Of a DNA stretch of 64,000 bases, positions 9,740 to 64,000 are shown one piece after another (position 1 is the stretch's first letter; every line of letters begins with the position of its first letter). The notes beneath the pieces are model-generated. The model was not told the DNA's origin. It saw nothing but the letters and a program-made list of their open reading frames with translations, and made no database searches. The stretch comes from Anaerolineaceae bacterium UBA6073 (lineage in GTDB: Bacteria; Chloroflexota; Anaerolineae; Anaerolineales; Anaerolineaceae). The stretch is from NCBI GenBank assembly GCA_002436085.1, contig DIXT01000021.1, positions 685 through 64,684 of the forward strand. Direction: 5' to 3'. Made by a program: the position numbers and the translations under genes.

Positions 9740-9837
9740 AGCGTGCTTCAGATTTCGCTGACCAATCAACTCTTGAGAGCGTCAGCGCTTGCTTGGTGCT
9801 TACTGTTTTTGCTTATTGACAACATAAGAATTACATC

Positions 9838-10636: not shown

Positions 10637-10731
10637 TGCGCGCACACTCTGAGGTCGACCAAGGGCCGCGGGTAGGGGTGAAGCAAAGAGGAAGAGGAAC
10701 AGGCGTTTTTTGTTCAGCTTCTCATTCAATG

Positions 10732-47600: not shown

Positions 47601-47834
47601 TCCATCCGCCAGGAACTGGATGAGCCTGAAGTACTGCAGCTGGAATTGTTTACCAGCGAGGAAAAGGAACAATTGAATCGCAACATGGACGCTCTACGGC
47701 GAAGGCTGGCAGCTATTCCGGGCGAAATTGAGCAGGAAAAAATGGTGATTCAAAAAAGGTTCTCGGACCCGCAGATACGTATGTTTCCGGTTGCAATCAT
47801 GTTTCTCGTTCCCGAGAAATATTCACGCGGATAA
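44655..47834 (+). CDS. drmD: SNF2-family helicase, DISARM class 1 DrmD-like
   Basis: Motif I LLVADDVGLGKTIEAG, motif II ILIIDEAHNIAP, C-terminal helicase LLATDAASEGIDLQ and NPNRLEQRNGRLDRHGQ. First large gene of the operon. Confidence 0.8.
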   Translation: MITNTTTSIPEIGQIVTVRQRRYVVSDIQQSTIPLEVLSKNGDKPQHLIFLSSIEDDALGETLQVIWEIEPDARINDKSGLPDPAGFDSPIKFDAFINAVRWGAISSADIRSLQAPFRSGITIEDYQLDPLVRAVQMPRANLLVADDVGLGKTIEAGLIVQELLLRNRARTVLIVCPSSLQIQWRDQMRDKFGLEFRIVDAELMRTLRRTRGLHTNPWSHFPRLITSIDFLKRDRPMRLFKEILPAEDEPKYPRKFDILIIDEAHNIAPVGRGKYATDSLRTLAIRTIAPNFEHKLFLTATPHNGYKESFTALLELLDNQRFARGIEPDRQQLQLVMVRRMKSELPPQFDGTPRFPKRSIQAIEVSYSDEEKKAHAWLQEYTELRQQNPKDAVERYATEFMMKMLKKRLFSSPAAFLLTLEQHLKTLEKTKTLSDQHKPVFGILRQQLEAAEEDDPQETSEEPGEDVILTATRLFRPVTPREKELLDNLLAWAKRSAARPDSKIQELLKWLKTNIKPNGVWSNERVVIFTEYRATLNSLQELLAMEGFTGDNRLMTLYGGMDDEKRESVKAAFQARPEISPVRILLATDAASEGIDLQNHCHCIIHTEIPWNPNRLEQRNGRLDRHGQTKDVLVHHFVTKGFRDQEQNAWDVRGQGLEADLEFLFRAVKKVEQIREDLGKVGPVIALQVEEAMLGKRRHLDTAQAERDNEPVRRMLKFERDLRAQIARHMEQLQETRQTMNFSPENTEIIVETALELAGQRGLIPAKLPKLPGEQHPINGTPIYELPALTGSWAACAEGLAHPHTGKIRPITFDHNVVDGRDDVVLAHLNHRLVQMSLRLLRAEVWSPASKKGLHRLTARLVADTALTDPAVIAFARLVVTGGDQNRLHEEIISTGGFLKEGKFNRMNVGQVTNALQAATDQEPNAAMQQRLLDLYARMIPSLSSALEARCKDRMDGIQKLLTERSEFEARSIESVLNELASSIRQELDEPEVLQLELFTSEEKEQLNRNMDALRRRLAAIPGEIEQEKMVIQKRFSDPQIRMFPVAIMFLVPEKYSRG

Positions 47835-47870: not shown

Positions 47871-49409
47871 ATGGCCATTTCAAAAAAAGCAATCAACAAG
47901 GGAAATGCCGAAGAAGGTTCAGGAATTCGTCAATCTGATAATCGGATAAGCGTTAGTATTTATTTTTCTGATTATTTCAATGTCAGCCCAAGATTGCTTG
48001 AGGAGTATGGTGCCTTTAATATATCACTTGTTAATGATCTTCCATTGTTTATTGACCCATTTTTATTATTCACTTCTACGCGGGATGAATATCGTCAATT
48101 ACACGATGGCATTATTCGTTACCTCCGGTTTCTACGCGATAAATCAATTAGCGGAAAGATTACCCCCGGTTTATTATTGGCTTGGTTTATGTTCAAGGAG
48201 GTTAAGCAAACCTGGCTTGGTTTTTCGCGCTTCGGTAATAGTGGTAGTGGCTTAGGCATGGATTTCGGTCGAGCCCTAAATGAAAACCTCATTAGAGTGT
48301 TTTCAGATTTTGGAAATGAACGAATTACACATGGAAGTCACCTTGAAAAATTGTGTTTGATAAATGAGGGTGTAGGCAGAGACAACATTAGTGACTTTTC
48401 AACTAATTTAATAAAGGAATACTTGCTTAGTTACACTCAGAAGTTTGCCCAGGAAAATATTGCACCCGACCTGCTGGGGAAGTATCGAGTCCCCAAAGTA
48501 CGGTTCAATTATGAAACGGAAAAATGGGAGTCTGAATTATTTAATCTCCCTGTTTACAATGGTGATTATGTTATCTTGACCCCAGTGGATATGCTTACAA
48601 AGGATTCGATTTGGATCAACAGGGAGGACTTGGTCAAGAATTTTAGGGAAATAGCCGAGTCCGTTCCTGATGAGCAACTTAGGGCTGAACTTAACAATTA
48701 CCTCTCAGCCGAAATACCAAAAGATGCAAAGTCAAAAGAGATTAACACTGTTCACGCAAGCGCTTATAAAGTTTTTCCTAAACTCCTTGAATACTATATC
48801 AAATACAAAGAAGATCATGGCGAGGAAGCTAAAGCTTTAAGTGAAACAAATGTCGAGGAATCCAAGCTTCTTTTTATTGACCAGGTTGTTGATTTCATAA
48901 TTTCTCTGTCGAATAACACAGGCTTTTATCAAACCAGCGGTGACACTCTAAAAGACGCCTACGATCGCGTCATGTTTATGAAGCACGTGATAGAGCATCA
49001 AGACGGTTATAGACTTTTCTATATCAATGGTGAACCTGTTAAACGCGAAAGCGACGTCCAACTAATTTTTAAATTTACCTGGTTTGCATCGCCCTCTGAT
49101 ATTAATGCTGAGGTTAACAATGGGCGCGGTCCAGTTGATTTTAAAGCATCGCGGGGGGCTTATGACAAGTCACTCATTGAGTTTAAACTTGCGTTGAATA
49201 CCCAATTACGGCGCAATCTTCAAAACCAGGTCGAAATCTATAAAATGGCGAATGATACGGAAAAAGCTTTGAAAGTGATTGTTTATTTTTCTGAATTGGA
49301 ACTTCTTAAAGTACAGGCTATATTAGAAGAACTTGAATTGAAAGACGAAAGATCCATCATCCTTATTGACGCAAGAGCAGACAACAAACCATCTGCATCT
49401 AAGGCTTAA
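47871..49409 (+). CDS. hypothetical protein with C-terminal PD-(D/E)xK-like nuclease motif
   Basis: 512 aa, AT-rich gene. The C-terminal ..ESDVQLIF..GRGPVDFKASRGAYDKSLIEFKLA.. fits the E...PD...ExK arrangement. Ends 3 nt before drmMI. Confidence 0.6.
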   Translation: MAISKKAINKGNAEEGSGIRQSDNRISVSIYFSDYFNVSPRLLEEYGAFNISLVNDLPLFIDPFLLFTSTRDEYRQLHDGIIRYLRFLRDKSISGKITPGLLLAWFMFKEVKQTWLGFSRFGNSGSGLGMDFGRALNENLIRVFSDFGNERITHGSHLEKLCLINEGVGRDNISDFSTNLIKEYLLSYTQKFAQENIAPDLLGKYRVPKVRFNYETEKWESELFNLPVYNGDYVILTPVDMLTKDSIWINREDLVKNFREIAESVPDEQLRAELNNYLSAEIPKDAKSKEINTVHASAYKVFPKLLEYYIKYKEDHGEEAKALSETNVEESKLLFIDQVVDFIISLSNNTGFYQTSGDTLKDAYDRVMFMKHVIEHQDGYRLFYINGEPVKRESDVQLIFKFTWFASPSDINAEVNNGRGPVDFKASRGAYDKSLIEFKLALNTQLRRNLQNQVEIYKMANDTEKALKVIVYFSELELLKVQAILEELELKDERSIILIDARADNKPSASKA

Positions 49410-49412: not shown

Positions 49413-52400
49413 ATGTCCATCGCCCGACACCACAACGAATGGCTTTCTCTGATTGAAATATCCGGCCCGTTTTTGAGCCTGCCGGTGCTGATGCGCACCT
49501 TCCCGCAGGGATTGGACGCGCTTGACCGCGATGGCCTGGCGGAACTGCGCCTGGCATATGAGGAATGGCTGGATGACCAAAACAGCCTGCGCCCCTCACC
49601 GGCTATTCATTCGGTGTGGGTACGTTATGTGCTCGAACACGTTCTCGGCTTTGAAAAAAGCCATCTGCTCGAGGGTCCGGCGATACCGGCGACCCTGCAA
49701 GCCTTTGTTGCCGAACAGGGCGAGACCCTGCGCCCCGACCTCGTTGTATCTAATTCCCCTCTCCTCCCAGGAGAGGGGTTAGGGGTGAGGTTACTGGTTC
49801 AGGTTTGCCCCATGACCCAGGGGCTGGAAGAATCCATGCTGAATCACCGCTGGAAAGCCTCGCCGGCCATGCGCATGCTCGAACTGCTGCGCGCTACTGG
49901 TGTTTCGTTGGGTCTGGTGACCAACGGCGAGCAGTGGATGCTGGTCAACGCGCCTAAGGGCGAGACCAGCGCGTTTGTCTCCTGGTATGCCGCCCTGTGG
50001 TTGGAAGAGCCGCTCACTTTGCGGGCTTTCTCTTCATTACTAGGTGCAACACGTTTCTTCTCGGTGGCGGACGAGGATACCCTGGAAGGCATGCTCAAGG
50101 ACAGCGTCAACGAGCAGCAGGAAGTCACCGACCAGTTGGGCTACCAGGTGCGCCGGGCGGTGGAGGTATTGATCCGCGCCATTGATAAGGCCGACCAGGA
50201 CTGCGGTCGAACGCTTTTGAAGGACATTCCGGAAAAAGACCTGTACGAGGCTGCCCTGACGGTGATGATGCGTCTTGTTTTCCTCTTTTCCGCCGAAGAG
50301 CGCGGACTGTTGCTGCTGGGCGACCCGCTTTACGATCAGAACTATGCGGTCTCTACCCTGCGCGCCCAGTTGCGTGAAACCGCCGATCAGCAGGGTGAAG
50401 AGGTGCTGGAGCGCCGCTTCGATGCCTGGTGCCGACTGCTGGCCACCTTCCGTGCCGTGCATGACGGCATTCACCACGACCGTCTGAACCTGCCGGCTTA
50501 CGGCGGCAGCCTGTTTGATCCTGATCGTTACCCATTTTTGGAAGGAAGAATTGCCCTCATCCCTAACCCTTATCCCGAGAGGGGAAGGGAATCCCCTCTC
50601 CCCGCCGCTTCGGCGCTCCGTAGGGAGCCGGGAGAGGGCAAGGGTGAGGGTCCGCTTCCCATCTCGAACCGCACGGTGCTGCATCTGTTGGAAGCGCTGC
50701 AGGTGCTGCGTGTCAAGGTTCCGGGCGGTGGACCCGCCGAAGCCCGTCGGCTCTCCTTCCGCGCGCTGGATGTGGAGCAGATCGGTCACGTCTATGAAGG
50801 CTTGCTGGATCATATTGCCGTGCGCGCCAGCGAACCCGTGCTGGGGCTGGCTGGCACACGCGAGAAAGAACCGGAGCTATCGCTGCCCACTCTGCGGGTG
50901 GAAGAAGCCAAAGGCGAGAAGAATTTTCTTGCCTATCTTAAAGAGCAAACCGGGCGGTCAGAAAACGCGCTGCGCAAAGCCCTGCAGGAAAGACCGGACG
51001 TGTTCACCAACCAGCACTTGCTCATTGCCTGTAACAACGATGCAAAGATGCTGGAGAGGGTGGCGCCGTACGCCGGTCTGCTGCGCGAGGATGACTTTGG
51101 CTACCCAGCGGTTTTCTTACCGGGCAGCGTGTACGTCACCGCCGGAGCCACGCGCCGCGCCACCGGCACACACTACACTCCACGCAGTCTGACCGAGCCG
51201 ATTGTGCAGCACACCCTCGAGCCGCTGGTTTATACCGGCCCAGCCGAGGGGCTGCCCAAAGAACAGTGGACGCTCAAATCTCCCGCGGAACTGCTGGATC
51301 TGAAGGTTTGCGACATGGCCATGGGTTCTGCCGGTTTCCTGGTGCAGGTGATCCGCTACCTCTCGGAGCGGTTGGTAGAAGCCTGGGATCAAATCTCCCC
51401 AGAACCATTTGCTAAATCTCAACCTTCGGAAATATCTGGAATTCCTGTAGAAGTCCCTCACCCCAGCCCTCTCCCAGCGGGAGGGGTGGTAGCTAAGGAA
51501 GCATTATCGCCTGAAATGCTGGAGCGGGTGCGGGAACTGCGTAAGAACGCAACGGAGGCGGAAGCTTTTCTATGGGAATTGTTGCGCGACCGCCAATTGG
51601 CTGGTTTCAAATTCCGCCGCCAGCATCCCCTGGGCGGAACCATTCTTGATTTTTACTGCCATGAAGTCCACCTGGCCGTTGAGATCGACGGCGCCGTCCA
51701 CAAGGAACCGGAACAGGCCCAGCACGACGCCGAACGCTCCGCCTATCTGAACGAACAGGGAATCCGGGTCATTCGCTTCTGGAACCACGAAGTCCTGAAT
51801 CAAACAGATGCCGTTCTAAAGAAAATTCTGAAAGAGTTTCAGTCGTCTGCTTCTCCAGTGCTCCCTTCTCCCAGTGGGAGAAGGGCTGGGGATGAGGGCC
51901 GCTTCCTCCGCATCACCCCCGAAGGCCAGCCCGCCAGCGGCAAACCCAATGAGATCATTATTCCCAAGGACGATGAAGAGCGCCTGGTGCTGGCCCGCCG
52001 CCTGGTGGCCGATCGCTGCATCTACGGGGTGGACAAGAACCCTCTGGCGGTGGAGATTGCCAAGCTGTCGATCTGGTTAACCACCATGGACAAGGGCCGG
52101 CCCTTCACCTTTCTGGATCACGCCCTCAAATGCGGCGATTCGCTGGTGGGTGCGGATGAAGACATGTACCGCAAATGGGCCTACAGCCTGAAAGGCGCCC
52201 AATTCACACTTTACCTGACCACGCTGGAGGAATTTACCGCAGCCGCCCGGCAGAAACGCAGGGAACTGGAAAGCTTCACCGTGCTGGACGTGCGCGATGC
52301 CGAACACAAAGCCGAACTGTTGAAAGAAGCCGACGCCGCCATGGCGCGCGTGAAACTGGGCTGCGACCTGCTGGTGGGTGTGCGTCTGCTGGGATTGAAA

Positions 52401-54200
52401 CCCGCCGAACAGGAAACCCTGCTCTCACATTTATTGTGGGATTACGTAGCCGGCCTGCCCATGGATACCCCCGACGCCCAGCGCGCCTTGCACGCCGCGC
52501 GCAAAGAGCACGCTTTTCACTGGCCGTTTGAATTTCCTGAGGTGTTCGAAAAGAAAGGATTTAACGCTTTTGTTGGAAATCCCCCATTTATGGGTGGAAC
52601 AAAAATCTCAACTTTTTTTGGAAGTCTATATGCTGATTATCTAAAAAGTTTCTACCTAAGTTTTACAGGTAATGCAGATCTCTGTGCTTTATTTTTCCTC
52701 CGCACATTTCATAATATATCAAAAAAAGGAACGTTAGGATTAATTGCCACTAAAACTATTTCTCAAGGTAATACGTCAGAAACCGGCCTAGGAGAAATTT
52801 TACTGAATGGCGGGATAATTTTCAACGCGAATTCATCAACTTCTTGGCCAGGTAGTGCAGCCGTGATCGTTAGCATAATTTTCATTACAGATAATTCGTA
52901 TTCTGGTGAAATAGTATTAAACGAGAAAAAAGTAGGAAAGATCTCGCATTTACTCTCTGAGGTTGTATTTGATTGGGAGCCGAAGGAATTAAGTGCTAAT
53001 CAAGGAATTAGCTTTAATGGTTCGAAATTAGATGGAATCGGATTTGTTATTGAACCTAATGAGGCAATCGATTTATTGTCTAAATCACCAAAAAACAAAG
53101 ATATCCTTTATCCCTTTTTAGGTGGAGCTGACCTCAATAATCAACCCGATCAAAAATCTACGAGATGGGTAATCAATTTCTCCGAATTACCATATGAAAA
53201 GGCGAAAGAATATCCGGATTGTTTACAAATAGTTCAAGAAAGAGTTTTTCCTTCTCGTCAAAACCATGGAGAAAAGAGAACTAGAGAAAATTGGTGGCAA
53301 TTTACTCGGGTTCGTAATGAACTTTATCAGTCATTACATGGTTTACAAAAAACAATAGTAATATCCCAGGCAACAAAGTACATTCAACCAAGCTTGGTTG
53401 ATACGGGAATTATTTTTGATCAAGCTTTAGTTATATTTGCCAGTCAATCATATGGTTTATTTGCAATACTTAATTCTACAATACACTCATCGTGGGCATT
53501 GGAATACCAGACCTCTTTGGGAACTACTCCTTACTATATTCCCACTAAAGCTTTTTTGCCTTTCTGTTTTCCTCAGACACTCGTTACTCTAGATAAAATT
53601 GGTAAAGAATATCATGAGTTTCGATGCCAGATAATGCTTTCTCATGTGGAGGGTCTAACCGCCTCCTACAACCGTTTTCACAACCCCAAAGAAAAATCTA
53701 CCAACATTGCCCATCTGCGCGAGCTGCATGTGGAAATGGACAATGCCGTGGCTGCCGCCTACGGCTGGAGCGATCTCGATCTGGGGCACGGTTTTCACGA
53801 GACGCCGCAGGGGGTGCGCTACACCATCTCTGAAGCCGCCCGCAGGGAGGTGCTGGCGCGCCTCTTGCAGTTGAACCATGAACGTTATGAGGAAGAAGTC
53901 CGCCAGGGGCTGCACGAAAAAGATAAAAAGAAAGCCCAAAAAGAAGAGAAATCTGCCCGGCAAAAGCCCAAAAAACTCACCCAGCCTGAAGGGCAGATGA
54001 ACCTGCTGGCTGAGCCGGAGGTTGCCGATGTAGGGGAGACCGCCGAAGCTCTGCCCCCTACGCCCACGTCCGAGATCGGCAGCTGGGACCGCTGCAAGTG
54101 CCTGGCTTGCGACAAGACCGTGATGGGCTTTTCCATCGCGGAGCACACCCAGTCCGAGCATGGGGGCAAGGATCCAGGGTATAGGAAGATGGGGGGATAA
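49413..54200 (+). CDS. drmMI: giant N6-adenine DNA methyltransferase (type IIG / Eco57I-like), DISARM DrmMI-like, with nested DUF559 domain
   Basis: 1595-aa uninterrupted ORF. Motif IV FVGNPPFMGG (about 52570-52600). N-terminal helical region typical of large defence methylases. Internal DUF559 block at about 51500-51840. Confidence 0.8.
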   Translation: MSIARHHNEWLSLIEISGPFLSLPVLMRTFPQGLDALDRDGLAELRLAYEEWLDDQNSLRPSPAIHSVWVRYVLEHVLGFEKSHLLEGPAIPATLQAFVAEQGETLRPDLVVSNSPLLPGEGLGVRLLVQVCPMTQGLEESMLNHRWKASPAMRMLELLRATGVSLGLVTNGEQWMLVNAPKGETSAFVSWYAALWLEEPLTLRAFSSLLGATRFFSVADEDTLEGMLKDSVNEQQEVTDQLGYQVRRAVEVLIRAIDKADQDCGRTLLKDIPEKDLYEAALTVMMRLVFLFSAEERGLLLLGDPLYDQNYAVSTLRAQLRETADQQGEEVLERRFDAWCRLLATFRAVHDGIHHDRLNLPAYGGSLFDPDRYPFLEGRIALIPNPYPERGRESPLPAASALRREPGEGKGEGPLPISNRTVLHLLEALQVLRVKVPGGGPAEARRLSFRALDVEQIGHVYEGLLDHIAVRASEPVLGLAGTREKEPELSLPTLRVEEAKGEKNFLAYLKEQTGRSENALRKALQERPDVFTNQHLLIACNNDAKMLERVAPYAGLLREDDFGYPAVFLPGSVYVTAGATRRATGTHYTPRSLTEPIVQHTLEPLVYTGPAEGLPKEQWTLKSPAELLDLKVCDMAMGSAGFLVQVIRYLSERLVEAWDQISPEPFAKSQPSEISGIPVEVPHPSPLPAGGVVAKEALSPEMLERVRELRKNATEAEAFLWELLRDRQLAGFKFRRQHPLGGTILDFYCHEVHLAVEIDGAVHKEPEQAQHDAERSAYLNEQGIRVIRFWNHEVLNQTDAVLKKILKEFQSSASPVLPSPSGRRAGDEGRFLRITPEGQPASGKPNEIIIPKDDEERLVLARRLVADRCIYGVDKNPLAVEIAKLSIWLTTMDKGRPFTFLDHALKCGDSLVGADEDMYRKWAYSLKGAQFTLYLTTLEEFTAAARQKRRELESFTVLDVRDAEHKAELLKEADAAMARVKLGCDLLVGVRLLGLKPAEQETLLSHLLWDYVAGLPMDTPDAQRALHAARKEHAFHWPFEFPEVFEKKGFNAFVGNPPFMGGTKISTFFGSLYADYLKSFYLSFTGNADLCALFFLRTFHNISKKGTLGLIATKTISQGNTSETGLGEILLNGGIIFNANSSTSWPGSAAVIVSIIFITDNSYSGEIVLNEKKVGKISHLLSEVVFDWEPKELSANQGISFNGSKLDGIGFVIEPNEAIDLLSKSPKNKDILYPFLGGADLNNQPDQKSTRWVINFSELPYEKAKEYPDCLQIVQERVFPSRQNHGEKRTRENWWQFTRVRNELYQSLHGLQKTIVISQATKYIQPSLVDTGIIFDQALVIFASQSYGLFAILNSTIHSSWALEYQTSLGTTPYYIPTKAFLPFCFPQTLVTLDKIGKEYHEFRCQIMLSHVEGLTASYNRFHNPKEKSTNIAHLRELHVEMDNAVAAAYGWSDLDLGHGFHETPQGVRYTISEAARREVLARLLQLNHERYEEEVRQGLHEKDKKKAQKEEKSARQKPKKLTQPEGQMNLLAEPEVADVGETAEALPPTPTSEIGSWDRCKCLACDKTVMGFSIAEHTQSEHGGKDPGYRKMGG
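51455..51900 (+). other. in-frame insertion inside drmMI: DUF559 (Vsr-like endonuclease) domain bracketed by palindromic GC-rich elements
   Basis: Translation EAEAFLWELLRDRQLAGFKFRRQHPLGGTILDFYCHEVHLAVEIDGAVHKEPEQAQHDAERSAYLNEQGIRVIRFWNHEV matches the DUF559 consensus. It is flanked by hairpins ccctctccc-agc-gggagggg (51467-51486) and cccttctccc-agt-gggagaaggg (51863-51885). Confidence 0.75.
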
Positions 54201-55288
54201 TCGTGTTCAACTGAAATTGGCAACTACTTAATTATCCAAGTCAATGAGATAATTTACCTAAAGCGATCAAGGAGTTCGAGATGAGAATAAAAATGATTTC
54301 AGTGAAAAAACTTTTCGGTATGTTTGACTACACCATACCGTTAAATCTTGAAAAACGCGCAACAATAATCATTGGACCTAATGGATATGGAAAAACAACG
54401 ATATTAAAAATGGTCAATGGAATATTTAATGGGAATCTTTCAATTCTTTTCAGAGTTCCGTTTAATGAATTCACTATTGATTTTGAGGATAATTCCAAAA
54501 TTCAGTTGTTGAAAAAGAAAAGTAGCAAGAAAAATACGCGAGGCATTTTGGATATATTTCTAACTTTCTCCAAACCCGGAGAAGAAAATAAATCCATAAA
54601 TCTCACTGATATTGGTTCAGAGAAAAATCGAGAATTTATTTATTACGCTTCAGATATGCTCCGTGATGAATACATTGATCGTTCGACTCTCCGATTACTT
54701 CGTGCTGGAGGAGATTTCCAGAATATTGAGAATATTTTTAGTATTTATGAAAAACTGTATGATATGTTTTCAAGAGAAATGAATTATGGCGAAAAAAGAT
54801 CTTCTCGGCTTCACTTTCCAGCATTTCTGCAATCTGAATTTGGTGAAAAATTGCAAGCGATTATGCAGATTACGCGAACTTTGAATGTACATTTTATCCA
54901 AACACAAAGATTAATATCCTATACAACACAAGAAAAAGCTGAAAGATCAGAGAAGGAAACCCCTGTTGTCAATATGTACTCAAATGCGCTCGCGAAAGAT
55001 ATCGAAACTACTCTTGCGCAGTCATCCCAACAGGCACAAAAGCTGGACAGTACGTTCCCCAGACGTGTTATCACCAATCTGCCCCCAAAGGGGACAAAGG
55101 ATGCTTATCAAAAGCTTCTGAAGGAACTCGAAGATCTAAGAAATAAAAGAATTCACCTGAGAGACACCGGCATTCTAGTTGACCTTGGTGATGACTTGGA
55201 AATTACTGAGTCAATCGATGATATCAATCGCCTAAATTATCTCAACGGAGTTCTTACTGAGTATATAAACGATACTCGTATTAAACTA

Positions 55289-56476
55289 GTAGTCAGTCTT
55301 AATGGATAAGATGGAATAATCCTTGCAACCAATGGGGCGAGGAGACCTCCAAAATGCCAAAGAAACTGTACCATATAAACTTAAATGATGAAGAACAACA
55401 GACATTGTTCGAAATGACTCGAAAAGGCAAAATCAAAGCACGCCAGATGAAACGGGCAATGATTTTACTGAAAGCAAACGAGGGTTTGTCAGATCCACAG
55501 ATCATGGCGGCATTGAATGTAAGCCGACCTTGTGTTGAACGAATCCGCAAGCGGTTTGTGTTGGGTGGCTTGCAAAAAGCGTTGAATGAAGATCCTCGAC
55601 CTGGGCAAAGACGGAAATTGGATGGTCGAGGCGAAGCCACCTTAATAGCAACAGCTTGCAGCCAGGTTCCAGAAGGGCATGAGCATTGGACTCTGCGTTT
55701 ACTGGCAGGAAAGATGGTTGAACTGGAAGTGGTGGACTCGATCTCACATGAAACTATCCGCCGAACGCTAAAAAAAATGAGATAAAGCCCTGGCAGAAAG
55801 AAATGTGGTGCATTCCAGAAGCCAGTGCGGAATATGTGGCTTGCATGGAAGATGTTCTGGATCAATATGAACGGCCCTACGATGGCAGCTCCCCCCAGGT
55901 TTGTTTTGATGAAGGGCAGAAACAGTTGATTGAAGAAACTCGGAAGGGATATCCGTGCAAAGCAGGGTACAAAAGACGCTACGATTATGAGTACAAACGC
56001 AATGGTGTTCGCAACTTGAACATGCTTTATGAACCTTTGTCTGGGAAACGATATGTAAGAATCACAGAACGGCATACCATGGTTGATTTTGCACAATGTA
56101 TGAAATGGCTGGTGGATGAGCTCTATCCGGATGCCATCCTGATCCGCGTTGTTATGGACAACCTCGGCACACATAAGCCAGCTTCTCTGTACGAAGCATT
56201 TCCACCACAAGAAGCCCGCCGGATTCTCAAAAAGTTGGAATTTCATTACACCCCAAAACATGGCAGTTGGCTGGATATGGCAGAAATTGAGTTGAGTGTA
56301 TTTAGCCGAAAGCTGAAACAGCACATACCCGACGAAACCCTTCTCAAAACGGAGGTGCAAGCCATTGTGGAGGAGCGAAACAGCGTCCATTCGATTATTA
56401 AATGGCAATTCCGAACTGAAGACGCTCGCATCAAGTTGAAGCAGCTTTATCCATCTGTTTCTGCCTGACCGACTAC
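55289..56476 (+). mobile_element. IS630-family insertion sequence (1188 bp) with TA target duplication
   Basis: Terminal inverted repeats GTAGTCAGTC (55289-55298) and GACCGACTAC (56467-56476) match at 9 of 10 positions. TA lies on both sides (55287-55288 and 56477-56478). Encodes a two-ORF IS630-type transposase. Confidence 0.85.
55354..56468 (+). CDS. IS630-family transposase (orfA HTH + orfB DDE, joined by a -1 frameshift in an A8 run)
   Basis: orfA 55354-55785 carries HTH domains. orfB (frame -1) carries DDE-domain blocks (VCFDEGQKQL, VVMDNLGTHK, YTPKHGSWLDMAEIE). Slipping -1 in AAAAAAAA (55770-55777) yields ..TLKKNEIKPWQKEMWCIPE.., the junction typical of IS630 transposases. Confidence 0.85.
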
Positions 56477-56867
56477 TAGCAATATTCGATGAATTAGCAG
56501 GAAAAATCGAATTATTAAAAAAGATAATCAATGAAAGGTTTTCCTATAAGAAACTAGAAATTAGCAAAGACAAAGGTTTCATATTTATGACCACACAAGG
56601 GGAAGAACTCCCGCCAGACGCTTTATCGTCAGGTGAGCAGCATGAATTGGTCATGTTTTATGAATTCCTGTTTAAAGTACCCAAAGGATCTCTGCTTTTG
56701 ATCGATGAACCTGAACTTTCTTTGCACATAGATTGGCAGCAAAGGTTCTTAAAGGATTTAATTGAAATTGCTGAATTAGCGGGGTTTGATGTCGTGATAG
56801 CGACCCATGCACCATCGATCATCAATAACTTTTGGTCACTAGCAGTAGATTTAGGGGAATTGGATAA

Positions 56868-57809
56868 ATGACCATTGCAGCAAACAGTATTACCAAGCAT
56901 TTGAAACCAAGTGATATTGCCAATGAAGCAAGGATGAAGCGAGGCCCGACTGAAAGACGAACTGGTAAGAAGTTGGCATTAGTCATAGTTGAAGGTTGTG
57001 CAGATCAACTCTTGTACACCACAATTTTGGATATATCCAAGTGTTTGGTCATAACGGCCTATGGAAAAAACAATGCAATCCAAGCTCTTCAAATCTTATT
57101 AACTGAAAATACACCAGGCGTAATGGGTCTCGTTGATGATGATTTTGATTCTTTGGAAGAAAGAAATTTACGAAGTGTAAACCTTGCTGTTTCTGACACC
57201 CATGATCTCGAGACATTGTTGTTTGTAGCAAGTTCACTGGATAAACTTTTAAACACATTACTGCTACCTGAAAAAAGGGAATATCTGGTTGTGTTATGTG
57301 AGAATGTAAGGAAAAAAATAATTGAATTAGGAAGCCCAATTGGTTTTATTCGGTGGTTATTTCAAAAGGAAAATGTATTGATTGATTTCCGAAATGTGTC
57401 ATTCAGGGCATTTATCGATCCTAGGCGATTGACGGTTGATGTAGATGCTTGTGTTGGGGAAATTCTTTCAAGGAACGGGGGATTCAGAATGTCGAAGCAG
57501 GATATTCAAAAAAGATTACCTGAACTCATGAAAACGTCTCCTAATCCGTGGTCGCTCTGCCAGGGACATGATCTTGTGAAAATTCTTTTGTTAATCATGC
57601 CCCAATTATTATCAGGTTATGCACCTTCAAATAAAGATGAGGCTCGTTTGTATTTTGAGCAAATTCAACAAAAAGTTCCTACTGAGGCTCGTTTAACAGA
57701 GCAGTTGATAATGTGTTATGAACAAGATGAATTTAGAAAGACCAATATCTATAAAGATATTAAGCAATGGGAAAATCGGAATTCGCCTTACCAAATAGCG
57801 CGATCATAA
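56868..57809 (+). CDS. DUF4435 / TOPRIM-like protein (PARIS AriB-like)
   Basis: LALVIVEGCADQLLY (TOPRIM Glu) and VMGLVDDDFDSL (DxD) as in DUF4435 proteins. ATGA overlap with the ATPase C-terminal fragment. Confidence 0.65.
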   Translation: MTIAANSITKHLKPSDIANEARMKRGPTERRTGKKLALVIVEGCADQLLYTTILDISKCLVITAYGKNNAIQALQILLTENTPGVMGLVDDDFDSLEERNLRSVNLAVSDTHDLETLLFVASSLDKLLNTLLLPEKREYLVVLCENVRKKIIELGSPIGFIRWLFQKENVLIDFRNVSFRAFIDPRRLTVDVDACVGEILSRNGGFRMSKQDIQKRLPELMKTSPNPWSLCQGHDLVKILLLIMPQLLSGYAPSNKDEARLYFEQIQQKVPTEARLTEQLIMCYEQDEFRKTNIYKDIKQWENRNSPYQIARS

Positions 57810-57841
57810 GCGGGAAAATATCATGAAGGGCAAAGAAGTAT

Positions 57842-60800
57842 ATGTCAGATGAATTAATACCACCTTCCGCAAATCAAATTCGTTCAGAACTTCAAGATCT
57901 CATCCTGCGCGACCTGCTCGGCCCAGCCGGCGGGGAAGAAGAAATTATCGATGAGTCCTACGTGCGCGACCGCTACATCCTCGGCCTGCTGGCGCCGCGC
58001 GGACAGAGCGTCATCCCCGAAGAGGAAGAAGATCTGGCTTTTACCGATGGAGATGGTGAAGAAGGCACGGTAGAACCCACCACCATCCGCAATTCCACCC
58101 TACTGCCCTCCTCCATGGGGTTGACCTTTACCGTGGATGCCTCTGCCACTGCTATCCAGATCAAAGCCCGTTGGGGCCGCTATGAACGCATTGCAAGCGA
58201 GGAACTGGGTCTTGAGCTGGAGAAACCCCATCCGGTGTGGAAGCGCATGCCGGTGGAAATGCTCTCCCCTGCCATAGTGCTCACACCCGGACGGATGAAG
58301 CGCTGGGTTCCAAACCCGAATTACCCCGACGTCTATGTGGATGGCTTATTTCGTCAACGCAATGGCGAATGGGTGATCACCCTCTTTTTGGTGAACGCCC
58401 AGGAAGAACCCAAAAAGCTGCGCGATACGGCCTGGCTGTTCCAACCCGAGCTGACGGTTAGTGCACCGGATGGGGCAGCTATCTTCCGCCAGCGGCGTAC
58501 TTTGCGTAACTGCCATGCGGATGAAGAAGAGGCCGCCATGGCAATGCTCTACCGTGAGCAGGTGGAATTCGCCGTCGGCCACGGCGTGGCCGTGCATGCT
58601 GAGCTGGCGCCCGGTGCGGTTGACCGGGCTGTCTCGTTGAAAACCATCATTGCTCCGGCATTTGAATTGCCGCGTGTCACTCCGCCCACCAGCGCGGAGA
58701 TTCCCGGCCTGCAGGGGCTGGTGCTGGATATGAAAACGCTTTCCGGATTGGCAGACAGCGAATTGGCCAAAGCACTGAGTCCCCTGACTGCCGCCTATGC
58801 AGACTGGATTGAGGGACTGGAAAAACAGTTGGCGCATAGTTCGGCCGATCTGGAGCCGTATCACACCACCGCCCTGCAAACCATCGATACCTGCAAACAA
58901 AATCTAAAGCGCATTCAGGCTGGCATTGATCTCCTTGCAGTCAGCCCGCAGGCAGCCGAAGCCTTCCGTTTTGCCAACAACGCCATGGCGCTGCAGCGCA
59001 TTCACACCCTGCACTCCGAATCGATCCGCCGTGAAGAGAGCACAACACTGGAAGAACTGGATATTGAAAAGAACCGCACCTGGTATCCTTTCCAGTTGGC
59101 CTTCATCCTGCTAAATCTGCCTGGACTTACCGATCCGCACTCTGCGGAGCGCAGCCATCCTACTCAGGCTATTGCGGATGTACTCTGGTTCCCCACCGGC
59201 GGCGGAAAAACTGAAGCCTATCTGGGCTTGACCGCCTATACCCTGGCCATGCGCCGTTTGCAGGGCATGATTGGCGGCTATGACGGCAGCGCCGGCGTAG
59301 CGGTGCTAATGCGTTACACCCTGCGCCTGCTCACCTTGCAGCAGTTTCAACGTGCCGCTGCTCTGATATGCGCCTGCGAAAGCATCCGCCGGGAGGATGT
59401 GGCAAAATGGGGCGCTGAACCCTTCCGCATTGGATTGTGGGTGGGTCAGCGCAGCACCCCCAACTGGAATGCCGACAGCGATGAAATCGTTAAAGAATAC
59501 CGCAAAACCGGCTATTTCCGCTCCACCGCCACCGGCGGCTCGGGATCACCGCATCAATTAACCAACTGCCCCTGGTGCGGCGCGCCGATCAACCCGGGCA
59601 CTGACATTGTTGTCGAGACCTACAAACACGGTTCCTGCCGCACAATCGTTTATTGCCCATCCAACGCCTGCATTTTTAATCAAAAGAATGCCAAACGGGA
59701 GGGCTTACCGATTTTGGTGGTGGATGAAGAAGTTTACCGCCGCCTGCCCTCGCTGCTGATTGCCACCGTGGATAAATTTGCCCAGATGCCCTGGAAGGGC
59801 GAAGTGCAGATGCTGTTTGGCCGGGTGAATGGTTATTGCAGCCGGCACGGCTACCGTTCTCCCGATATCGAGGATAAGAACACTCACCCGGCGGATAAAG
59901 TTTTCGGACTGCCGGCAGCAGAAACCGAAGAGAAGAGTTGTCTGCGTCCCCCGGATCTGATCATTCAGGACGAATTGCACCTCATCAATGGCCCCCTGGG
60001 TACCCTGGTCGGGTTGTATGAAACCGCGGTCGATAACCTGTGCAATTGGGAATTGGATGGCAAGACCGTGCGGCCGAAAGTGATTGCTTCCTCTGCAACG
60101 ATCCGCAAAGCGCCGGCGCAAATCAACAGCCTTTATTTGCGCCAGATCAACATCTTCCCGCCGAATGGCTTGCTGATCAAAGATAATTTCTTCTCCCGCC
60201 AACGCACACCGGATGAGACTAATCCCGGAAGGGTTTATTTGGGTATTTGTGCACCAGGCTCGCGCCTGAAAGTGGTGATGATCCGCTCCTATGTCGCAGT
60301 GCTATCCGCTGCGCAGAAGTTATATGAAAAATATGGCGGGCTGGTGGATCCTTATATGACCCTGGTTGGTTATTTTAACGCCATGCGTGACCTGGGCGGT
60401 TTGCGCAGGGTATTGGATGATGCCATTCGCACCCGTTTGCGACACATGGAAAAGCGGGGATTGTCCAACCGTAATCTGGATACATACAGCATCGCCGAAT
60501 TAACTTCGCGCATCGGTGCGACGGATATTCCGGAAATTCTGGATCGGCTGGGCGCGGCCTTTGACCCCCAGCGGGATGACGAACGCAAGAAAAAGCGCAA
60601 AGCCGGCGAGAAAGTTGCTTCTTCCAGTTACCCCATCGATACCTTGCTGGCGACGAACATGATTTCGGTTGGTGTGGATGTGCCCCGCCTGGGACTAATG
60701 GTGGTAGCCGGACAGCCCAAGTACACCAGTGAATATATTCAGGCAACCAGCCGTATTGGTCGTCGTTTCCCAGGTCTGGTGGTAACGGTTTATAACTGGG

Positions 60801-61354
60801 CTCGTCCCAGGGATTTGAGCCATTACGAGCGGTTTGAGCATTACCATTCAACCCTATACCAGCAGGTTGAAGCATTATCCGTGACGCCGTTCTCACCGCG
60901 TGCCATCGATCGAGGATTGACTGCACTGTTGGTTTCTTTCCTGCGCCTTTATGGATTTGATTTCAATAGTAATGAAAGCGCTGAAAAACTGACCCGAGAT
61001 CACCCGACAGTGAAATTAGCCATCGATGAGATTTGCCGGAGAGCAGGATTGGTAACAGGCAGCATACAAGTCGAGCAAGACGTGCGATCTGAACTGAACA
61101 GCCGCATTGATCTCTGGCTTGCACGGGCTGCCAAGCTGGCAGCAGGCGGCTCCAAATTGGGCTATAAAGGCAAAGGTGATGGACGAACATTGGCATTACT
61201 GGGAACGCCCAACAAACAAGATCGGGATGTTTTCACTTGCCTGACCTCTTTACGGGATGTCGAACCTTCTGTAAATCTTGTGTTGAATAATTATGAAATC
61301 GAGACTCCTGCCAACAGTGTTGGAGTAGATCAAGAACAGGAGGCCGCCCAATGA
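57842..61354 (+). CDS. drmA: DExH superfamily-2 helicase, DISARM DrmA-like
   Basis: Motif I WFPTGGGKTEAYLGL, motif II LIIQDELHLINGPLGT, motif VI YIQATSRIGRRFPG. 1170 aa. Overlaps the following DUF1998 gene by 4 nt. Confidence 0.8.
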   Translation: MSDELIPPSANQIRSELQDLILRDLLGPAGGEEEIIDESYVRDRYILGLLAPRGQSVIPEEEEDLAFTDGDGEEGTVEPTTIRNSTLLPSSMGLTFTVDASATAIQIKARWGRYERIASEELGLELEKPHPVWKRMPVEMLSPAIVLTPGRMKRWVPNPNYPDVYVDGLFRQRNGEWVITLFLVNAQEEPKKLRDTAWLFQPELTVSAPDGAAIFRQRRTLRNCHADEEEAAMAMLYREQVEFAVGHGVAVHAELAPGAVDRAVSLKTIIAPAFELPRVTPPTSAEIPGLQGLVLDMKTLSGLADSELAKALSPLTAAYADWIEGLEKQLAHSSADLEPYHTTALQTIDTCKQNLKRIQAGIDLLAVSPQAAEAFRFANNAMALQRIHTLHSESIRREESTTLEELDIEKNRTWYPFQLAFILLNLPGLTDPHSAERSHPTQAIADVLWFPTGGGKTEAYLGLTAYTLAMRRLQGMIGGYDGSAGVAVLMRYTLRLLTLQQFQRAAALICACESIRREDVAKWGAEPFRIGLWVGQRSTPNWNADSDEIVKEYRKTGYFRSTATGGSGSPHQLTNCPWCGAPINPGTDIVVETYKHGSCRTIVYCPSNACIFNQKNAKREGLPILVVDEEVYRRLPSLLIATVDKFAQMPWKGEVQMLFGRVNGYCSRHGYRSPDIEDKNTHPADKVFGLPAAETEEKSCLRPPDLIIQDELHLINGPLGTLVGLYETAVDNLCNWELDGKTVRPKVIASSATIRKAPAQINSLYLRQINIFPPNGLLIKDNFFSRQRTPDETNPGRVYLGICAPGSRLKVVMIRSYVAVLSAAQKLYEKYGGLVDPYMTLVGYFNAMRDLGGLRRVLDDAIRTRLRHMEKRGLSNRNLDTYSIAELTSRIGATDIPEILDRLGAAFDPQRDDERKKKRKAGEKVASSSYPIDTLLATNMISVGVDVPRLGLMVVAGQPKYTSEYIQATSRIGRRFPGLVVTVYNWARPRDLSHYERFEHYHSTLYQQVEALSVTPFSPRAIDRGLTALLVSFLRLYGFDFNSNESAEKLTRDHPTVKLAIDEICRRAGLVTGSIQVEQDVRSELNSRIDLWLARAAKLAAGGSKLGYKGKGDGRTLALLGTPNKQDRDVFTCLTSLRDVEPSVNLVLNNYEIETPANSVGVDQEQEAAQ

Positions 61355-63222
61355 CCAGACCCAATAATATTAAAGTGGGAGAACTTAATCCATCCCAACT
61401 GCTCTATACCTATGGAGTCGGGGCAATTGTCGATTTGCCACATTTATCCGCCATCGTTTCCGGATTGGATGATTGGCCGGTAGATCCCGAATATGTTCGT
61501 GAAATCCAGGAAGAACGCCTGCTTTTTGCCCTGAAAGGTGAATTGGGGAATCAAGTGCAGCGACTGCTATCCCTGCCCAGCGTTCCAGATGTAGGCGGAA
61601 AACCTAATCCCTTTGATAAAGAAGCACATATCGGCGTGCCAGTCAGTACCTTCCCACAGTGGATGGTTTGCCCCTCATGTCAGGTGCTCGCTCCCACCCA
61701 GTCCGAGTTATTTGAACTGAAGGTGGATTATTATCATCCTGACCGAACGCATTATGAACATGTCAATTGTCAACGCGCAACCAAGCCAACAGCGTTGCCG
61801 GCGCGTTTCCTCGTGTGCTGTGAAAACGGCCATCTGGATGACTTCCCCTGGGTGGAATATGTTCATCATTTTGACCCGACCAAATATGATCACAAAAGCC
61901 TGACTTTGTCAGAATTTGGGCCATCTGGTGAGGCTCGTGATCTCTATGTGGAGTGCAATATTTGCGGTGCAAAACGGCAACTGGCTGAAGCTTTCGGACG
62001 TGAGAACCGTGAGAAAATGCCCATTTGCAAGGGTCGCCGGCCGCATCTCCATGATTACGATCCGGATGGTTGTGAACTCTATGTGCGTGCTATCTTGCTG
62101 GGTGCCAGTAACCTCTGGTTTCCATTTGTCCTCAACACAATTTCCATCCCTACCACCGCAGATAAGTTGGCCAATTTGGTTGCGGAAAATTGGGGCGAGT
62201 TAAGCCGCGTAGAAAAGGTTGATGAATTGGCATACATGGAGAAATGGGGGAAACTGAAAGCATTTGCAGAGTATGCTTTGTCTGATTTATGGGATGCCAT
62301 TAGTAAAAGAAAATCGCGCGAGACATCAAGCGAGAATGATGAACACCCTAATTTGCTAACCCCAGAATGGGCTGCGTTTACGACCCCTGCATCACAAAGC
62401 CAAACCCCTGATTTCAGATTGAAATCTGTAAATCCTCCCTCAAAGTATAAGGATGTATTTTCACAGGTCGTTCTGGTTGAGCGGTTGAGGGAAGTCAGAG
62501 CATTGGCTGGATTCACCCGGATCGACTCTCCTGGAGAAATGGCGGAAAGCGACGAGGAAGAAATTCAGGCTGTTTCACCCATCTCAAGAAAAAAGCCAAA
62601 TTGGATTCCAGCGATTGAAGTGCGAGGTGAAGGGATTTTCCTCCAATTTAGGGAATCAGAAATTCTCAAGTGGTTGGCTCAACCTGCGGTAAAAAACTGG
62701 GAAGCGATGTTCTTCCAGGCACATATCGAATGGCGCAAGAACCGCATGATCGAAAATCCAGAAGCAAATTTTCCTGGTTTGCGGTATGTTTTGTTGCACT
62801 CTTTTAGCCATGCGCTCATGCGCCAATTTGCCATGGAATGCGGATACACCCAGGCCAGTATTCGAGAACGGATCTATTCAAATAATCCAGGCCAGCCGGG
62901 TGATCCGATGGCTGGAATCCTTCTTTATACATCCGCTCCAGATTCGGAAGGTACACTGGGTGGTCTGGTAAGTTTGGGAGAACCCCATAATTTAGAGAGA
63001 CACATTGATTCCGCTCTTGAAGCGTGTGGTTTATGTGCATCTGACCCTACTTGTGCAGAACACATGCCCGGTTATGGTGCTTCAACGGTTCATGCGGCCG
63101 CCTGTCATTCTTGTCTCTTCTCGCCCGAAACTTCTTGCGAAAGAGGTAATCGCTATCTTGACCGTTCAGTACTGGTTTCAACCGTCAGCCATGATAATCA
63201 CCGGTTTTTCAGCCATGAATGA
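61351..63222 (+). CDS. drmB: DUF1998 domain protein, DISARM DrmB-like
   Basis: LLHSFSHALMRQ block, GTLGGLVSLG, and the terminal Cys cluster CGLCASDPTCAEH..AACHSCLF are typical of DUF1998. 623 aa. Confidence 0.8.
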   Translation: MTRPNNIKVGELNPSQLLYTYGVGAIVDLPHLSAIVSGLDDWPVDPEYVREIQEERLLFALKGELGNQVQRLLSLPSVPDVGGKPNPFDKEAHIGVPVSTFPQWMVCPSCQVLAPTQSELFELKVDYYHPDRTHYEHVNCQRATKPTALPARFLVCCENGHLDDFPWVEYVHHFDPTKYDHKSLTLSEFGPSGEARDLYVECNICGAKRQLAEAFGRENREKMPICKGRRPHLHDYDPDGCELYVRAILLGASNLWFPFVLNTISIPTTADKLANLVAENWGELSRVEKVDELAYMEKWGKLKAFAEYALSDLWDAISKRKSRETSSENDEHPNLLTPEWAAFTTPASQSQTPDFRLKSVNPPSKYKDVFSQVVLVERLREVRALAGFTRIDSPGEMAESDEEEIQAVSPISRKKPNWIPAIEVRGEGIFLQFRESEILKWLAQPAVKNWEAMFFQAHIEWRKNRMIENPEANFPGLRYVLLHSFSHALMRQFAMECGYTQASIRERIYSNNPGQPGDPMAGILLYTSAPDSEGTLGGLVSLGEPHNLERHIDSALEACGLCASDPTCAEHMPGYGASTVHAAACHSCLFSPETSCERGNRYLDRSVLVSTVSHDNHRFFSHE

Positions 63223-64000
63223 AAACTCGTTAGTCCTTCTTATATCTGATTTCGTTCAAAGTACACCTTCTGAAATTATTTACGAAGTACTGAAAATAAT
63301 TCGTGAATGGCATTCAACTCCATCAGATTTTCAGAAGACAAAATTGTTGTCATCCATCCAGAGCCCTCACAGTAAAGACAAACTCAAAAAGATAATTGAT
63401 TGCTGGGTAAAGGATTTTCCGCAATTAACATCCGACGGAGTTTGCTTATCCATTCAATCCTCTTTAGCGACTTTTAGAACATTACTTACTCCGTTATTGG
63501 AATTGATTTGGACTGGACCTGAGGATTTGACAACTAACTTACGCCGGACGGATCAGGCTTTATTAGAACTAATTCAAGGAGCAAATAAGCACCTTTTAAT
63601 GGTTAGCTTTGCAGTGTATAAAGCCCAGCCAATACTAGATGCGATTGAAGCTGCGATTCTCAGGAACGTGAAGGTGATCATTTGCCTGGAAGATTTGGAT
63701 GGGAGCCAAGGAAAATTATCATTCTCAGGTCTAAACGCCTTTTCAGAAAGTGTTTTCAAGCTCGCCTCGTTTTACACGTGGCCAATTGAGAATCGCCCAC
63801 TTACAGCTGATGGGAAATTTGGCTCTTTGCATGCCAAAATTGCCGTTGCTGACCGAGAAAAAGTATTTATTTCCAGTGCCAATCTAACGGATTACGCCAT
63901 GGATTTAAATATAGAAATGGGAGTGCTTCTAAAAGATAAAGCAATTGGGGAACAAATCAACAACCTATTTAATAATATGATTTTGAATTCTGTTTTTCGG
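63215..64000 (+). CDS. drmC: phospholipase-D-family (HKD) nuclease, DISARM DrmC-like; 3' end outside the window
   Basis: The ATG at 63215 overlaps the drmB stop by 8 nt. The frame is open for 262 codons to the window edge (MNENSLVLLISDF...). HKD motif SLHAKIAVADREKVFISSANLTDYA. Absent from the ORF track because no stop is reached. Confidence 0.75.
   Translation, partial: MNENSLVLLISDFVQSTPSEIIYEVLKIIREWHSTPSDFQKTKLLSSIQSPHSKDKLKKIIDCWVKDFPQLTSDGVCLSIQSSLATFRTLLTPLLELIWTGPEDLTTNLRRTDQALLELIQGANKHLLMVSFAVYKAQPILDAIEAAILRNVKVIICLEDLDGSQGKLSFSGLNAFSESVFKLASFYTWPIENRPLTADGKFGSLHAKIAVADREKVFISSANLTDYAMDLNIEMGVLLKDKAIGEQINNLFNNMILNSVFR

Follow-up and report, generated by a model that had tools for sequence, protein, structure and literature searches.

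PARIS of Escherichia coli B185 (Rousset et al. 2022, PMC9122126; Burman et al. 2024, PMC11464382) is the closest described relative of the gene pair analysed here. In the characterised system, a hexamer of the ATPase AriA sequesters the nuclease AriB, a trigger such as Ocr binds directly to the AriA ATPase, and the freed AriB cleaves host tRNA (PMC11464382). Ocr and Ptr1/2 are triggers that release AriB, and AriB alone is only mildly toxic, its toxicity requiring prior association with AriA, unlike prototypical toxin-antitoxin systems (PMC11464382). We analysed a stretch of 64,000 nucleotides from Anaerolineaceae bacterium UBA6073 (contig DIXT01000021.1, positions 685 to 64,684; hereafter the window), in which a PARIS-like pair lies inside a DISARM operon, between drmMI and drmA. 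As in B185, an ABC ATPase (AAA_15/AAA_21) of ~465 amino acids is followed by a DUF4435/TOPRIM protein of ~305–313 amino acids. The setting differs, since B185 PARIS occupies a P4-like satellite hotspot (PMC9122126), whereas the window pair sits in a Chloroflexota DISARM operon and is broken by an insertion sequence (IS). We consider it quite probable that window positions 54201–57864 are a low-GC cassette of the PARIS family, carried as exchangeable cargo at the drmMI–drmA junction, with its ariA-like gene split by the IS and the module most likely dead.

Defence genes nested in methylation-based operons have been described before. In Salmonella Typhimurium D23580, ariAB is likewise co-oriented inside an operon with a PglX/MmeI-like methyltransferase, and a backup role against Ocr-like inhibitors has been proposed there (Went et al. 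2024, PMC11341690); that host operon is type I BREX and not DISARM, and its PARIS is intact but inactive in every assay tried (PMC11341690). According to Payne et al. 2024 (bioRxiv 10.1101/2024.01.29.577857), BREX, DISARM and type I restriction-modification (R-M) systems often hold embedded genes, 96.7% of them co-oriented and many of them known or new defence systems. The same work describes a "guilt-by-embedding" set covering BREX, DISARM, type I R-M and Hma systems, and suggests that an embedded PARIS or Gabija could be set off by an inhibitor of its host system. The text searched makes no mention of the present junction, its exact boundaries, this PARIS clade or export together with DISARM fragments, and it states that systems with pseudogenes were excluded, so that an IS-broken case would be filtered out. 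ShdA homologues are also embedded in DISARM-like operons of Pseudomonas (PMC10270631). The literature that we searched held no description of this junction, its boundaries or this PARIS clade. For BREX, DISARM and type I R-M, general versions of the embedding and backup ideas have been published (Payne et al. 2024; Went et al. 2024), and the present case is a divergent, IS-disrupted embedded PARIS whose DISARM bay context is well supported and was anticipated in general form. The classical precedent is PrrC, an ABC-ATPase-type, tRNA-cutting backup embedded in the EcoprrI type Ic R-M locus and activated when the phage anti-restriction factor T4 Stp disables the first line (summarised in PMC9122126 and Payne et al. 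2024). Unlike the window pair, PrrC consists of one polypeptide, which the R-M complex holds silent by physical contact and which is a true guard; by sequence the two are unrelated beyond the ABC ATPase fold.

A reading made from the letters of the window alone (the sequence-only reading) had proposed an AT-rich module of two open reading frames (ORFs) in the middle of the operon. Both ORFs are present where it placed them, between genes that PADLOC assigns to DISARM, and the GC content of the pair (0.35–0.38, against 0.55–0.60 in DrmA and the N-terminal part of DrmMI and 0.53 over the whole window) bears out its AT-rich character. The parts of the cassette are as follows; loci used for comparison carry L numbers.

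54201–54280, + strand: cassette leader, 80 nt, inside the block that matches locus L081 and not conserved in L001–L003
54281–55288, + strand: ariA-like ABC ATPase gene, 5' part (codons 1–336, with Walker A)
55289–56476, + strand: IS630-family insertion sequence, 1,188 bp, with inverted repeats and HTH_32 and DDE_3 matches
56479–56871, + strand: ariA-like gene, 3' part (codons 337–466, with signature, Walker B and H-loop)
56868–57809, + strand: ariB-like DUF4435/TOPRIM nuclease gene, 313 amino acids, intact, identified by DUF4435, PADLOC AriB and AlphaFold2 fold
57810–57864, + strand: right edge of the cassette, a 32-nt spacer and the first ~7 drmA codons, moving with the cargo

The element in the ATPase gene appears intact and has the hallmarks of the IS630 family, namely a helix-turn-helix plus DDE_3 transposase, terminal inverted repeats and a TA duplication. 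Its terminal repeats are CTAGTAGTCAGTC and GACCGACTACTAG, with 13-nt arms that agree at 12 of 13 positions. The TA dinucleotide is duplicated at 55287–55288 and 56477–56478, and the restored target reads CTAG; IS630 elements prefer CTAG/TA targets. The length of 1.19 kb and the short inverted repeats also fit the family, and the element differs from it in having its transposase in two frames that are joined by an A8 run and need a −1 frameshift. These frames are orfA (55354–55785; HTH_32, 4.4e-18) and orfB (55803–56468; DDE_3, 1.3e-19), the second continuing the first across the A8 run at 55770–55777, which is by its sequence the likely frameshift site. The element is present in a single copy in the window, and no further copy was found in the fetched loci or, by megablast, in a plasmid collection.

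Removal of the element and of one TA (54281–55288 joined to 56479–56871) restores a single ORF of 466 amino acids, which aligns with the intact homologue in L081 over 466 of 466 residues, with zero gaps and 92% identity. The splice coordinates proposed from the sequence are therefore exact, and the claim that an IS disrupts the ATPase gene and leaves its nuclease partner intact is upheld. The IS splits the gene between codons 336 and 337 and is its only lesion, which suggests that the insertion is recent. As now encoded, the ATPase consists of an N-terminal ORF of 342 amino acids and a possible C-terminal ORF of 94 amino acids (56587–56871) that keeps the ATGA coupling to the nuclease gene. 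A functional PARIS has uninterrupted genes, and with ariA broken by the IS the window locus is a disrupted member of the family; intact orthologues of the pair are found in L081, in L084 and on a contig of the metagenome JGI 3300075153.

The assignment of the pair to PARIS begins with published detection values. The original scheme called for AAA_15 at at least 32 bits or AAA_21 at at least 27 bits, together with DUF4435 at at least 27 bits (PMC9122126). For the reconstructed ATPase, the AAA_15 match is full-length (residues 1–451; 1.8e-20, 74.3 bits) and AAA_21 is matched as well (7.9e-16, 59.4 bits), and the nuclease matches DUF4435 over residues 40–244 (2.5e-10, 40.9 bits), so that both proteins exceed the cut-offs. 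AriA is the best PADLOC model for the ATPase, with the PtuA, NsnB, ATPase-Toprim and GajA models also scoring well. A phmmer search of the ATPase against the PDB placed PARIS AriA first (8UX9, 8V45–49; E=2e-17; lengths 466 and 464 amino acids), followed by an OLD-family nuclease at 1.6e-7. The motifs reported from the sequence are all present: Walker A GPNGYGKTT at residue 32, LSSGEQ at 385, Walker B LLLIDEPE at 408 and the H-loop ATHAP at 444. Walker A, signature, Walker B glutamate and H-loop are thus conserved between B185 AriA and the reconstructed protein, and the catalytic motifs are intact, yet in this genome they lie on two separate fragments. By phmmer, the protein can be aligned to AriA only at the two ends. 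Its 3' part aligns to AriA residues 357–438, pairing the Walker B glutamate with catalytic E393; an AriA E393A mutant has been described, and ATPase activity is needed for defence (PMC11464382).

The nuclease gene is adjacent to the ATPase gene and co-oriented with it, with an ATGA stop/start overlap at 56868–56871, as the sequence-only reading had noted. AriB (2.2e-19) is the sole PADLOC match of its product, which carries the motifs VEGCAD at residue 41 and VDDDFD at 89. When an AlphaFold2 model of the protein (pLDDT 90.6, pTM 0.86) was compared with the PDB by Foldseek, two structures, both of PARIS AriB, matched near full length at probability 1.00 (8ux9_A, 2.7e-6; 8v46_D, 1.7e-5). The next match had E=0.27, and no OLD or Gabija TOPRIM was significant. 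The closest solved structures for both proteins are thus those of B185 PARIS (8UX9, 8V45–8V49), and the DUF4435/TOPRIM similarity claimed for this ORF stands. Residues E42, G43, D46, D90, D92, D94, H112, D113 and E115 and a CxGHD motif at 231–235 are invariant in 24 nuclease homologues. The metal-binding acidic residues of the B185 AriB TOPRIM domain are E26, D30, D88, E90 and E122 (PMC11464382), and E42, D46, D90/D92/D94 and E115 of the window protein, which follow in the same order with similar spacing, are their putative equivalents by motif order. The relation to AriB, in contrast to that between the ATPases, is visible only through the Pfam and PADLOC profiles and the fold. Because the cut-offs are passed, AriA and AriB are the best PADLOC models, AriA leads the PDB sequence matches and AriB is matched by the predicted fold, the pair is placed in the PARIS family, as a distant clade, and its PARIS architecture agrees with what had been proposed.

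By analogy with the characterised system, a mechanism can be outlined for the intact versions of the pair, those of L081, L084 and the JGI contig. An AriA oligomer would keep AriB inactive until AriA is bound by a protein of the phage, probably a DNA mimic with anti-restriction function; AriB, released in an ATP-dependent manner, would then dimerise and cut host tRNA, halting translation. Inside a DISARM operon, such a module would act as a second line, coming into play when the methylation-based first line has been neutralised or evaded by a phage. In the original PARIS study, guarding of the resident restriction system EcoKI was ruled out, and PARIS worked without any R-M system (PMC9122126). 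Since EcoKI guarding was ruled out and AriA binds its trigger directly, "backup" describes such a role better than "guard", and a backup against anti-restriction proteins is plausible by this analogy. In the window itself, the module would most likely be dead or inactive and not harmful, because the intact nuclease gene has lost the ATPase on which its product depends.

The position of the pair was examined in a set of 80 DISARM loci, obtained by scanning one genome per species with DrmA. No relatives of the pair were found in these 80 species-representative loci by tblastn (1e-5) or with the family hidden Markov model applied to six-frame ORFs (1e-2). The closest loci by DrmA come from metagenome-assembled genomes (MAGs) of Bellilinea and Longilinea, namely L001 (96% identity), L002 (92%) and L003 (88%), and each holds other cargo at the junction.

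L001, drmMI–drmA junction: an AAA_21/AAA_15 ATPase and a small partner (PADLOC PDC-M56A 1.6e-161, PDC-M56B 9e-41)
L002, drmMI–drmA junction: four ORFs, including FokI-cleavage-like and Mrr_cat-like proteins
L003, drmMI–drmA junction: a GmrSD type IV restriction enzyme

Recognisable defence genes are the cargo in two of the three closest relatives. The PDC-M models that match the L001 cargo, and a further one that matches a 512-amino-acid ORF elsewhere in the window operon, may by their naming belong to a candidate set of the Payne type. In the 42 loci that cover the 3' end of drmMI as well as drmA, the two genes lie 136 bp to 8.8 kb apart (median ~3.9 kb). The ORFs in this gap lie mostly on the operon strand and comprise 104 singletons and few recurrent families; 113 sampled junction ORFs gave 72 Pfam families. 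Wider cargo includes UvrD/GajB-like helicases (12 loci), GmrSD (3 loci), other ABC ATPases, HEPN_Apea, Uma2, XisH and transposases, among others. The DNA of L001, L002 and L003 is homologous to the window up to 54190–54199, at the drmMI stop codon, which marks the left edge of the bay, and again from 57860–57887, ~20 nt into drmA (57860–57863 for L001 and L003). The range of the gap, the diversity of the cargo, the sharp edges of homology and the foreign GC of the pair together indicate that the junction is a genuine variable bay and the pair one of its many cargoes. The sequence-only reading had suspected both a hotspot for cargo at this junction and a pair that is variable and not a constant part of DISARM, and the comparison supports it on each count. 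The variety of the cargo points to a general bay and not to a specific PARIS–DISARM partnership.

One recurrent occupant of the gap is a ~700-amino-acid UvrD/GajB-like helicase gene directly upstream of drmA, seen in the 12 loci L019, L020, L023, L026, L031–L033, L041, L052, L069, L071 and L077. About ten of these are cyanobacterial, and six also carry an opposite-strand DUF4351 ORF. We considered whether this ORF might be a split N-terminus of DrmA and rejected the idea, as it matches UvrD/GajB-like helicase families. We treated the gene as cargo or as an accessory of the lineage, and it could well be the latter and no chance occupant.

Relatives of the pair occur both inside and outside DISARM. 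A search of a large protein database brought up only 24 nuclease relatives. The JGI 3300075153 contig, with a nuclease 88% identical to that of the window, carries the pair intact at the same junction, in the order 420-amino-acid ORF, DrmMI (1418 amino acids), ATPase (466), DUF4435 protein (313) and a cut gene of at least 611 amino acids. L084 shows full synteny, with drmD, a 512-amino-acid ORF, drmMI, the pair, drmA, drmB and drmC; its nuclease, ATPase and DrmA are 59%, 79% and 87% identical to those of the window. A further copy, in L090 (92% identical), has drmA immediately 3', and that of L081 (nuclease 87%, ATPase 92% identical) is free-standing amid housekeeping genes. A more distant copy in L085 (39% identical) adjoins three tyrosine recombinase genes. 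Metagenomes contained 252 distant relatives with 28–39% identity, whose neighbours are heterogeneous and mostly housekeeping genes, with no DISARM genes. An AriA-like ORF ends beside the AriB-like start in all 57 metagenome loci with enough upstream sequence. A scan of IMG/VR viral contigs for the AriB family returned no relative and so gave no sign of a phage or satellite carrier. Because the distant relatives are free-standing pairs without DISARM neighbours, we read the family as an autonomous two-gene module, one sub-clade of which appears from these comparisons to be associated with class 1 DISARM of Anaerolineae. That the pair occurs in the window and in L084 but not in L001–L003, which are closer by DrmA, implies replacement or re-acquisition at the bay.

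Several points weigh against an exchangeable PARIS cassette acting as a backup, and they concern each part of that interpretation. The modelled nuclease reaches a TM-score of only 0.49–0.51 against the AriB fold, at 15% identity. By sequence, phmmer did not find AriB in the PDB, and a profile of the 24 sequences gave only a marginal match there to an RNase M5 TOPRIM (E=0.43). With the nuclease so distant from AriB, its target and trigger could differ. As to exchange, L084 has the pair at the same junction (AriA 79%, AriB 59%, DrmA 87%), and for this reason the pair may, in one sub-lineage, have been inherited along with DISARM for some time. As to expression, no promoters or terminators were found on the + strand between 53800 and 58100, the counts being below shuffled expectation, a result that says nothing on read-through. 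The sole tested embedded PARIS, that of the Salmonella BREX operon, was inactive on all phages tried and gave no response to Ocr (PMC11341690). Transcriptional read-through into drmA is possible, the IS having the same orientation as the operon and no terminator-like site having been found on the + strand. To our knowledge, there is no known DISARM inhibitor that the module could sense.

The distance from AriB also bears on the nature of the system. The pair might belong to a wider group of ABC-ATPase/TOPRIM systems of the OLD, Gabija or HEC-01 type and be PARIS-like in architecture only, acting for example by DNA nicking or in response to another trigger. The low AriB identity, the TM-score of ~0.5 and the failure to reach AriB by sequence would all be accommodated by this, as would the scores of the ATPase with the PtuA, NsnB, ATPase-Toprim and GajA models, and ABC–TOPRIM pairings recur in several systems with distinct ATPases (Payne et al. 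2024). Nevertheless, PARIS proteins top every comparison, with AriA the best and AriB the sole PADLOC model. Among PDB sequence matches AriA is ahead of the OLD nuclease by ten orders of magnitude, no fold other than that of AriB is matched significantly, and the lengths of 466 and 313 amino acids fit the 464 and ~305 amino acids of PARIS. We therefore regard a system that is PARIS-like in architecture only as unlikely and retain the placement in the PARIS family.

The free-standing copy in L081 bears on how the cassette moves. L081 positions 8500–10997 are 91% identical to window 54177–57864 without the IS, the part 8500–9610 matching window 54177–55287 (91%). This block opens with the final 24 nt of drmMI, followed by the leader, the two genes, the spacer and the start of drmA, and its homology ends at window 57864; the drmA remnant reads ISDEFIPPSPNKIRQEL in L081 and MSDELIPPSANQIRSEL in the window. 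Directly after the remnant, L081 11009–11285 is 72% identical to window 53896–54193, the last ~100 drmMI codons. Relative to the window, the L081 order is thus circularly permuted, with the first ~16 drmA codons fused to the drmMI end. The join falls in a short sequence that is similar between drmA codons 12–16 and drmMI codons ~1494–1498 (IRQEL and VRQGL), and the L081 segment has a GGGTATA...GGG motif at either end. This arrangement is most simply read as the result of export of the copy from a DISARM locus, perhaps in circular form. It is a single example, which may instead reflect a history of two deletions or an assembly artefact. Because the cassette is 91% similar to the window and the accompanying drmMI fragment only 72%, the comparison suggests that the cassette has moved between diverged DISARM loci.

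Taken at their fullest, these observations could be joined in a stronger proposal, in which the drmMI–drmA gap is a dedicated exchange platform with fixed edges, from which cargo leaves as circles, and the PARIS clade has co-evolved with DISARM. The left edge may be the drmMI stop codon and the right edge the first ~6–7 codons of drmA, with second-line defences swapped between them. Exit could take place as circles formed through short repeats common to the drmMI tail and the drmA 5' end, as the circularly permuted DISARM fragments of L081 would indicate. The PARIS clade found here may in addition have co-evolved to detect inhibitors of the PglX-like methyltransferase of DISARM. We consider this joint proposal distinctly unlikely and favour the simpler one of an exchangeable cassette at a general bay.

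A closer tie to the host, in which the pair is an integral accessory of this DISARM subtype that works with DrmA, DrmB and DrmC and is no independent module, would account for its co-orientation and tight packing (80 nt to drmMI, 32 nt to drmA). It would likewise account for the same arrangement in L084, the JGI 3300075153 contig and L090, and the divergence of AriA between the window and L084 (79%) lies within the range of the DISARM genes (75–87%). However, the pair is absent from 80 of 80 species-representative loci, and the three closest carry unrelated cargo. Its homologues at 28–39% identity are free-standing among housekeeping genes, as is the copy in L081, its GC is foreign to the operon, and DISARM in this genome has tolerated its disruption. 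An integral role is accordingly very improbable. The least credible alternative is a selfish, toxin-antitoxin-like addiction module that stabilises itself and incidentally DISARM, with no function in phage defence and with the IS hit as neutral decay; the AbiEii/type IV toxin-antitoxin-like annotation of AAA_21, the movement of the cassette between contexts and the label "antitoxin" given to AriA by the PDB depositors speak for it, but loss of a classical antitoxin with the nuclease intact should kill, yet such a state exists here, and the characterised AriB is mildly toxic alone and AriA-dependent (PMC11464382).

The exchangeable PARIS-family cassette leaves current understanding unchanged. 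To the nesting known from BREX and type I R-M it contributes an example with clear limits, from DISARM and an uncultured Chloroflexota lineage, and it comes with natural controls, since four close relatives that share the operon backbone each carry a different cargo. The divergent and environmentally widespread PARIS clade to which it belongs, with its 252 metagenome relatives, could serve to test the generality of tRNA cleavage and of the anti-restriction trigger. The IS-broken state illustrates that annotation pipelines that skip pseudogenes miss such cases. It also indicates that loss of the ATPase with the nuclease kept is tolerated in nature, in agreement with the published need of AriB for AriA.

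The remaining genes of the host operon are the following.

44655–47834, + strand: drmD (SNF2 helicase), first gene of the operon; PADLOC DrmD E=0, 1391 bits; Pfam SNF2-rel_dom and Helicase_C
47871–49409, + strand: 512-amino-acid ORF between drmD and drmMI; PADLOC PDC-M36A 1.3e-20
49413–54200, + strand: drmMI (MmeI/PglX-like N6-adenine methyltransferase, 1595 amino acids); PADLOC DrmMI E=0; Pfam Eco57I, MmeI_TRD and MmeI_Mtase
57842–61354, + strand: drmA (helicase); PADLOC DrmA E=0; 96% identical to the Bellilinea sp. MAG locus L001
61351–63222, + strand: drmB (DUF1998/MZB); PADLOC DrmB 3e-86; Pfam MZB
63215–64000, + strand: drmC (PLD nuclease), partial, an open frame that runs past the window end; PLDc_2 2.6e-17

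The PADLOC rule for class 1 DISARM requires drmD, drmMI, drmA, drmB and drmC (PMC9252829). All five were found on the + strand with zero internal stops, and given the PADLOC matches to DrmD, DrmMI, DrmA and DrmB and the absence of internal stops, the host system is annotated as a complete class 1 DISARM operon. GC declines toward the 3' end of the operon, from 0.55 in drmA to 0.48 in drmB and 0.385 in drmC; with other low-GC patches, this makes the whole locus a compositional mosaic.

One such patch is the 512-amino-acid ORF (GC 0.39), a second gene embedded in the operon. Neither it nor its L084 homologue had a Pfam match in the library copy searched. The homologue, which is 75% identical, occupies the same place in L084 and is annotated DUF8370/DUF8371; among the fetched DISARM loci, L084 alone contains one. 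At the drmD–drmMI junction, L001 holds different content of ~2 kb, and drmD abuts drmMI in L045, L060, L072 and L074. By this comparison, the junction looks like a second variable bay.

DrmMI itself shows three further peculiarities. An in-frame insertion of ~165 amino acids (residues ~665–831, window ~51390–51905) contains DUF559 (Vsr/MTES_1575-like endonuclease, 5e-36; Pfam match at residues 704–809). It is present in L002 and missing from the orthologues of L001, L003 and L084 (1403–1418 amino acids), where the alignment jumps from residue ~669 to 832, and DUF559-like segments occur as separate pieces in the drmMI–drmA gap of L033 and L043. Further downstream, window ~52650–53600 has a GC of 0.36 against 0.60 in the rest of drmMI and overlaps MmeI_TRD (residues 1191–1367); it has no DNA-level homology to L001, L002, L003 or L084, though both of its flanks have, and it looks from this pattern like a swapped specificity module. 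The C-terminal tail (window 53920–54200, residues ~1502–1595) carries a CxCxxC...H....H zinc-finger-like motif, WDRCKCLACDKTVMGFSIAEHTQSEH. Homology to this tail was seen only in L001–L003, L068, L084 and the L081 fragment, most other orthologues ceasing to align at residue ~1501.

Directly upstream of the operon and divergent from it, the minus strand carries a gene with HTH_3 and Peptidase_M78 domains (ImmA/IrrE-like; 43204–44256), beside which lies a small ORF with a weak PIN-like match (42738–43232, minus strand). Together they could form a regulator pair, or they may represent another defence gene. The HTH_3 and Peptidase_M78 families are also found among the junction cargo of two other loci.

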